A DNA stretch of 64,000 nucleotides from Escherichia coli (GTDB taxonomy: Bacteria > Pseudomonadota > Gammaproteobacteria > Enterobacterales > Enterobacteriaceae), in the NCBI RefSeq assembly GCF_003790525.1, contig NZ_CP033635.1. One strand, written 5' to 3'. Positions 15,649 to 16,386 of the stretch are shown here, piece after piece. The notes beneath the pieces are model-generated. The model made no database searches and was not told where the DNA came from. It saw only the letters and a program-made list of their open reading frames with translations. The first letter of the stretch is position 1, and every line of letters starts with the position of its first letter. The position numbers and the translations under genes are program-made.

Positions 15649-16386
15649 ATGTCACAGTCTACATCCGTGCTTCGTCGTAATGGATTTACTTTTAAACAGT
15701 TTTTTGTTGCTCACGATCGTTGTGCGATGAAAGTGGGAACGGATGGCATTTTGCTGGGCGCATGGGCACCGGTGGCTGGGGTAAAACGTTGCCTTGATAT
15801 CGGCGCGGGTAGCGGGTTGCTGGCATTAATGCTGGCGCAGCGAACCGATGACAGCGTAATGATTGATGCAGTTGAACTGGAAAGTGAAGCTGCCGCGCAG
15901 GCGCAGGAAAATATCAACCAGTCCCCGTGGGCAGAGCGGATTAACGTCCATACGGCGGATATTCAGCAGTGGATCACACAGCAGACAGTACGCTTCGATT
16001 TAATCATCAGTAACCCACCTTACTATCAGCAGGGAGTAGAGTGCTCGACACCTCAACGGGAACAGGCTCGCTATACCACTACGCTTGATCACCCATCGTT
16101 GCTGACCTGTGCGGCGGAGTGCATTACCGAAGAGGGATTTTTCTGCGTGGTGCTGCCAGAGCAGATTGGTAATGGTTTTACTGAACTGGCATTAAGTATG
16201 GGCTGGCATTTACGTTTGCGGACGGATGTGGCGGAAAACGAAGCGCGACTGCCGCATCGGGTGCTGCTGGCATTCTCCCCGCAGGCGGGAGAATGCTTTA
16301 GCGATCGCTTAGTCATTCGTGGGCCAGACCAGAACTATTCCGAAGCGTATACGGCGCTGACCCAGGCTTTTTATCTGTTTATGTAA
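15649..16386 (+). CDS. trmN6: tRNA (adenine37-N6)-methyltransferase
   Basis: 245 aa from [19 protein letters not shown]...; SAM-binding [16 protein letters not shown] and NPPYY motif; ORF-track ORF starts 40 codons upstream. 3' end overlaps the convergent nadB by 16 bp. Formerly yfiC. Confidence 0.9.

Follow-up and report, generated by a model that had tools for sequence, protein, structure and literature searches.

Short convergent overlaps between coding sequences in prokaryotes have been surveyed more than once, reportedly also by Rogozin et al. in 2002. The survey of Lillo and Krakauer (2007; PMC2174442) covers 58 prokaryotes and includes 1890 convergent overlaps, of which 1218 are of at least 5 nt; the phase denoted 123:213 makes up 18% of the latter. 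Such overlaps involve real genes on opposite strands, whose stop codons lie inside the last codons of the partner, and they originate when a stop codon is lost or replaced. The nadB and trmN (yfiC) genes of Escherichia coli share this arrangement and, as it appears, this mode of origin. They differ in that their phase is a minority one, at just the 18% given above, and in that the nadB stop codon is made by a conserved dipeptide of TrmN. A second group of described systems is that of the excludons, a concept which in its classical form implies mutually exclusive expression. The nadB-yfiC pair is itself among the 165 convergent excludons of strain MG1655 in the ExcludonFinder catalogue (PMC12288877, Table 1), a listing that is based on RNA-seq transcript boundaries which overlap in at least 50% of 58 MG1655 transcriptomes. 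In contrast to the classical case, the overlap of the two transcripts follows trivially from that of the genes, and the listing is unsurprising because an overlap between coding sequences makes transcript overlap automatic. Converging units that must end within a very short distance may also employ a bidirectional intrinsic terminator, i.e., a G+C-rich hairpin with an A-tract and a U-tract, located between the genes or at their ends (bioRxiv 10.1101/2022.10.23.513370). While nadB and trmN have to end within an equally short distance, no hairpin flanked by A- and U-tracts is present between them or at their ends, and it is the orthologous locus of Yersinia that keeps a spacer with a GC hairpin.

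The window analyzed here is a stretch of 64,000 nucleotides of E. coli DNA (contig NZ_CP033635.1), and the coordinates of the relevant features are collected in Table 1. The two genes converge 3' to 3' on opposite strands, with the stop codon of each inside the coding sequence of the other. The plus strand between 16360 and 16390 reads ...GCT TTT TAT CTG TTT ATG TAA TGA.... Both direct reading and the list of open reading frames (ORFs) have trmN ending in TTT TAT CTG TTT ATG TAA, its stop codon occupying 16384-16386, and nadB, on the minus strand, in CAT TAC ATA AAC AGA TAA, where the stop codon occupies 16373-16371. The original prediction that trmN6 (yfiC) and nadB converge with a 16-bp overlap is thus confirmed, in that the ORF list, direct reading and RefSeq agree, and both the gene identities and the coordinates were correct. 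The phase of the overlap, in the notation of PMC2174442, is 123:213, with the third codon positions opposed to each other. Strain SMS-3-5 is 100% identical to the window over 2.7 kb, and its RefSeq annotation contains the same 16-bp overlap. In K-12 MG1655 (b2574/b2575), the positions of nadB (2710420-2712042) and yfiC (2712027-2712764) again give 16 bp. At its other end, the trmN ORF extends upstream to a GTG at 15529, the annotated start being the ATG at 15649.

Table 1. Coordinates of the features of the nadB/trmN junction in the window
Feature	Position	Strand	Remarks
trmN (yfiC) CDS	15649..16386	+	245 aa; tRNA1(Val) m6A37 methyltransferase; RefSeq annotation of identical strain SMS-3-5
nadB CDS	16371..17993	-	540 aa; L-aspartate oxidase; ORF and RefSeq annotation
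CDS overlap	16371..16386	both	TrmN codons Y-L-F-M and stop; NadB codons Y-I-N-R and stop
TrmN Phe-Tyr codons TTT TAT	16369..16374	+	reverse complement of the junction (Y-T-A) is the nadB stop
NadB residues 534-540 (GNHYINR)	16374..16394	-	Enterobacteriaceae-specific C-terminal extension; last four residues antisense to trmN
Perfect 10-bp hairpin inside trmN	16270..16296		GCATTCTCCC / GGGAGAATGC, 7-nt loop; 75-100 nt beyond nadB stop
Weak terminator-like match	16244..16256	-	5-bp stem TGCGG/TCGCG, tail CTTCGTTTTC; 115-127 nt beyond nadB stop
C-rich, G-poor stretch, candidate Rho loading region	16427..16544	+	C/G 1.7-2.0; past trmN stop, antisense to nadB 3' end
C-rich, G-poor stretch, candidate Rho loading region	16113..16270	-	C/G 1.9-2.3; past nadB stop, antisense to trmN

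Both ORFs encode genuine proteins. The product of trmN has a score of 421.6 bits with the NCBIfam model NF047853.1 (cut-off 350), in an alignment that reaches the last position of the profile, and the product of nadB has a score of 1048 bits with NF006567.0 (cut-off 629); both models are equivalogs. NadB also matches the 540-residue chains of PDB entries 1CHU and 1KNP across residues 1-540. A shorter end for either gene, which the original prediction had named as the observation that would overturn it, is ruled out, since both frames stay open up to the stops given above; because stop codons fix the ends of ORFs, a shorter annotated end is impossible without a change of sequence. The proposal that the overlap is an annotation artefact, one of the proteins truly ending sooner than annotated, was rejected on the same ground. 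It would also have to accommodate the last five residues of TrmN, which are conserved throughout the family and whose alignment with the NCBIfam profile extends to its last position, and the PDB entries for E. coli NadB, which carry the 540-residue sequence. We regard it as next to impossible.

A scan with TrmN, limited to one genome per species, provided 80 loci from the Enterobacteriaceae with 71-97% identity, and the 80 rows that were scored consist of 78 scan loci, the window and its SMS-3-5 twin. When both frames are extended to their stop codons, the overlap is 16 bp in 77 of the 80 rows, with three exceptions of 8, 8 and 12 bp. In one of these, Escherichia sp. ESNIH1 (L033), a 14-bp tandem duplication (TCTCTTTATGTAGT, two copies) over the end of trmN shifts the NadB frame and cuts the overlap to 8 bp, which suggests that the NadB tail tolerates frameshifts. 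Another (L006) has a 1-nt deletion directly beyond the trmN stop, and the third (L035) a shorter NadB tail. Two further loci of the scan have no NadB match: L065, its sequence ending 147 nt past trmN, and L026, which is described below. The stop codons vary freely, trmN using TAA, TGA or TAG and nadB using TAA or TAG, and the conserved overlap is therefore not a matter of simple sequence identity. In the antisense of trmN the NadB frame reads 5 codons before it reaches a stop, compared with about 21 codons for a random frame. By this estimate the overlap is no longer than expected by chance; its conservation, at exactly 16 bp in 77 of 80 rows, is not due to chance.

Within E. coli, the junction region is present in all but one of 5426 genomes. 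In E. coli BH212 (NZ_CP029239.1; L091, positions 2622-3949), an IS2 element is inserted within the 3' part of nadB, and the 87-bp remnant of the gene, annotated as a partial hypothetical protein, keeps the 16-bp overlap with trmN. In Intestinirhabdus alba (L026, positions 3723-4121), a 132-codon ORF stands alone at the position of nadB, still with a 16-bp overlap with trmN. A tblastn search of this locus did not find NadB, and ORFs on the plus strand follow directly; nadB appears to have been largely deleted in this species. Overlaps of this kind are locally common: of the eight convergent pairs in the annotated 50 kb of the window, three overlap. The other two are csiE (-)/hcaT (+), by 9 bp at 61585-61593, and mltF (-)/tadA (+), by 4 bp at 31056-31059, with coordinates converted from the SMS-3-5 annotation. 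Both of these pairs, like nadB/trmN, are contained in the MG1655 list of 165 convergent excludons (PMC12288877).

The primary structure of TrmN accounts for the constant size of the overlap. Of the terminal sequence FYLFM, all 76 loci compared have the same F, Y, F and M, while L is found in 75 of them. The Phe-Tyr codons, TTY-TAY, give TAR on the complementary strand, such that the reverse complement of the last base of the Phe codon and the first two bases of the Tyr codon constitutes the stop codon of nadB; in the alignment, loci with TTT for Phe have TAA as this stop, and loci with TTC have TAG. The size of the overlap is constant because these invariant codons supply the nadB stop. The sequence FYL is a C-terminal motif throughout the TrmN family, being located near the C-terminus also in orthologues with 38-54% identity, mostly two residues from the end. 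In NadB, the last four residues vary (H/Y, I/M, N/K and R/K), and the changes are the antisense of synonymous changes or of the choice of stop codon in TrmN, TGA corresponding to His and TAA or TAG to Tyr. The two NadB codons preceding the overlap are hypervariable: they encode 11-12 different residues and contain indels. Judged from these patterns of substitution, TrmN is the constrained partner and the tail of NadB is carried along.

Across the 80 species, no nadB stop has arisen in the 2-3 codons that are free ahead of trmN. Based on 51 distinct codons at three positions, a crude neutral estimate of the chance of finding no stop there is (61/64)^51, or about 0.09, the codons not being independent of each other. 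This value is not significant but still allows for weak selection on the tail of NadB. If the tail, [H/Y][I/M][N/K][R/K], were functional, the absence of NadB truncation before trmN would be explained. That the overlap has been selected, either for antisense pairing or polymerase conflict that would tune TrmN or NadB under NadR derepression of nadB, or for a functional basic tail of NadB, is in our opinion very unlikely.

A comparison with related families bears on the origin of the overlap. The search for homologous proteins gave, among the matches listed, solely close relatives from the Enterobacteriaceae (at least 70% identity), and the distant outgroups were reached through a representative search and look-ups of genomic context. 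In Yersinia, srmB is followed by trmN converging on nadB and then by rpoE, with a trmN-nadB spacer of 70 nt. In Hafnia, a branched-chain amino-acid transporter gene is located between trmN and nadB. In Rosenbergiella/Tatumella and one further contig, nadB is absent from the site adjacent to trmN. The spacer of the Yersinia-type contig (L085, positions 3257-3326) includes a 9-bp GC-rich hairpin (AGGGCGCAA...TTGCGCCCT, with an 11-nt loop), which on the nadB strand is followed by TATTTCAAT and which was not called by the consensus terminator scan. This hairpin is probably a terminator element that the Enterobacteriaceae have lost.

The NadB proteins of Yersinia and Hafnia end at ...PTIL[HQ]P, 6-7 residues before the end of NadB in the Enterobacteriaceae. 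Residue 520 is the last one covered by the general NadB model, TIGR00551, and the PDB homologues align to approximately residues 518-523. The position of the TrmN end is the same in the Enterobacteriaceae and in the outgroups. In a sample that is small, comprising four contexts (three genera and one further contig), these comparisons argue strongly for the 16-bp overlap being a derived state in the Enterobacteriaceae. The simplest reading of the four contexts, which do not amount to a full phylogenetic reconstruction, is that the family's ancestor would have lost the short spacer between trmN and nadB along with the original nadB stop. The NadB frame would then have been prolonged by 6-7 codons, reaching into the 3' end of trmN, and would halt at the first antisense stop, i.e., the reverse complement of the Phe-Tyr codons of TrmN. 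Strong purifying selection on FYLFM, together with the opposed third positions, would lock the nadB stop in place, and the last four residues of NadB would passively track the synonymous changes of TrmN.

Could the pair be a true excludon, in the sense of a selected regulatory device which couples NAD synthesis (nadB) to tRNA modification (trmN)? Transcription of one gene would then lower the expression of its partner by polymerase collision or by RNase III cleavage of the RNA duplex. The presence of nadB-yfiC among the convergent excludons of MG1655, the constancy of the overlap across a whole bacterial family, and the fact that it has never been abolished by an early nadB stop are all consistent with such a device. 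However, transcript overlap is automatic where coding sequences overlap, and the invariant Phe-Tyr codons of TrmN fully explain the fixed size. Moreover, Yersinia, Hafnia and Rosenbergiella manage without the overlap, while elsewhere it survives the destruction of nadB, whether by IS2 in BH212 or by reduction to the 132-aa remnant of Intestinirhabdus. There is no known functional link between the two genes, reciprocal expression data were not found, and, apart from the catalogue itself (PMC12288877), our literature search found no paper mentioning both nadB and yfiC. We consider a selected coupling of this kind decidedly unlikely. Because the overlap is dispensable in sister families, persists with a destroyed nadB, and has a size that is explained by TrmN alone, it is without apparent function. 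Nothing in the sequences compared suggests one, and the overlap looks like a harmless evolutionary accident. Any regulatory effect of the complementary 3' ends is probably small.

The lack of room for intergenic terminators, which the original prediction had stressed, is complete: there is no intergenic DNA at all, and any terminator must fall within the coding sequence of the partner. The antisense overlap of the transcripts that had been deduced from it likewise holds, since each mRNA must cover its own stop codon, which leaves at least 16 nt complementary, in agreement with the RNA-seq catalogue (PMC12288877). In the window, a scan of the 400 nt that follow each stop revealed no convincing intrinsic terminator, the stems being of just 5-8 bp. 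The 3-kb region contains four weak terminator-like matches, against 3.4 expected from shuffled sequences. Among 75 related loci, a terminator-like match follows trmN in 20 and nadB in 24, almost none of them strong, and no match is conserved in position across these loci except a weak 5-bp stem about 125 nt beyond the nadB stop. The stem of the weak match at 16244-16256 includes two G-U pairs, and its position bin gathered 21 matches from the 75 loci. A scan of positions 13000-20000 against Rfam, in E-value mode, revealed no RNA family.

The 10-bp hairpin inside trmN (16270-16296) is perfect, with 10 pairs and G-U allowed, in 12 of the 80 rows. Over 75 loci, pairing is found in 79.3% of cells, which equals the shuffle mean and is reached by 250 of 500 shuffles, and a single cell has a change on both sides. 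The arms encode the TrmN residues AFSP and GEC, and no U-tract follows the hairpin on the minus strand. A palindromic stretch comes after it on the plus strand, at 16291-16318. As a conserved 3' stabilizer or terminator, the hairpin was rejected, its pairing being that of the shuffled expectation with one compensatory cell.

The same elements underlie the possibility that the 3' ends are intrinsic or defined by structures embedded in the partner gene, with the hairpin protecting the nadB mRNA or with the stem at 16256-16244 and its U-tract acting as a terminator. In its support, the hairpin is perfect in the window, has a z of about -2.2 to -2.65 and is positioned 75-100 nt past the nadB stop, with the weak terminator-like match coming after it. 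Yet the hairpin is without covariation, its arms are coding, and on the nadB strand it lacks a U-tract. Two of the 5 bp in the stem of the weak site are G-U pairs, matches of its kind occur at shuffle-level frequency, a match after the nadB stop is found in just 24 of the 75 loci, and nothing comparable is located downstream of trmN. We regard embedded signals of this type as unlikely determinants of the transcript ends.

Rho terminates untranslated antisense RNA of the C-rich, G-poor kind. Each mRNA has to run into the gene of its partner, no usable intrinsic terminator is present, and the transcripts would end by Rho in the antisense RNA, untranslated and C-rich but G-poor, past either stop codon. 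The 3' ends of the two mRNAs are thereby complementary for 16 nt or more, and occasional head-on collisions of polymerases would also be possible. Two candidate loading regions were found by computing C/G in sliding windows of 78 nt (Table 1). The ratio of 1.7-2.3 after both stops is weak evidence, this being the composition usual for RNA antisense to almost any coding sequence. We propose that Rho-dependent termination inside the partner gene is most likely the mode by which both transcripts end.

A related case is found close by. A Rho termination region has been reported at K-12 position 2713962 on the minus strand, antisense within srmB (PMC7815308, supplement 2). Mapped from the annotation of the window, this position corresponds to approximately 14451 on the plus strand, some 300 nt downstream of the stop codon of yfiE, the gene that converges on srmB. 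Thus, the proposed mode operates in an adjacent convergent pair. As at yfiE/srmB, the transcripts of nadB and trmN enter the partner in antisense, followed by RNA that is rich in C and poor in G; the two pairs differ in that a Rho region is reported for yfiE/srmB (PMC7815308), whereas for nadB/yfiC none is listed and the mechanism is deduced. In the Term-seq data of Adams et al. (PMC7815308), there is no 3' end or bicyclomycin-sensitive Rho region for nadB, yfiC or trmN, which low expression may hide, and their curated 3' ends and Rho regions include no coordinate between 2710044 and 2719983. SMRT-Cappable-seq (PMC6131387) recovered nadB (TSS 2710391, +) and yfiC (TSS 2712801, -) each as a full-length monocistronic unit; the supplement gives start sites, with no transcript ends near the junction. 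In the same data set, the TSS of srmB (2712764, +) and that of yfiC (2712801, -) imply a 5' transcript overlap of about 38 nt, which corresponds to approximately 15612-15649 of the window when mapped from K-12 by a fixed offset. With this overlap of about 38 nt with srmB, trmN would be overlapped at both ends.

Head-on collisions between RNA polymerases, rather than Rho, might set both transcript ends. Collision-driven bidirectional termination of convergent E. coli pairs has been demonstrated, and the nadB and trmN units necessarily meet at the junction. Such termination needs a nascent stem-loop, the bidirectional terminator element, for positioning, and trailing polymerases for release (bioRxiv 10.1101/2022.10.23.513370). 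At nadB/trmN, however, the positioning stem-loop is absent. Furthermore, both genes are presumably weakly expressed, and polymerases converging at the same time should therefore be rare. We consider it quite improbable that collisions set the two ends. Taken as a whole, the account preferred here, i.e., an ordinary tail-to-tail overlap with loss of the spacer, a passive NadB tail and ends of the Rho type, is in our estimation probably correct.

The nadB/trmN overlap is genuine yet ordinary, and it joins two unrelated housekeeping genes. It is also already known: the annotation of K-12 has contained it for decades, and a published list of overlapping transcripts includes the pair. Its overall importance is small. 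What the present analysis adds is that the overlap is recognized as a derived state extending throughout the Enterobacteriaceae, that convergent overlaps of coding sequences are locally common (3 of 8 convergent pairs), and that the mechanism fixing the size is clear, the nadB stop being generated by the conserved Phe-Tyr dipeptide of TrmN. The locus could serve as a clean test case for how convergent transcripts are ended in E. coli where neither a spacer nor a terminator hairpin is available.
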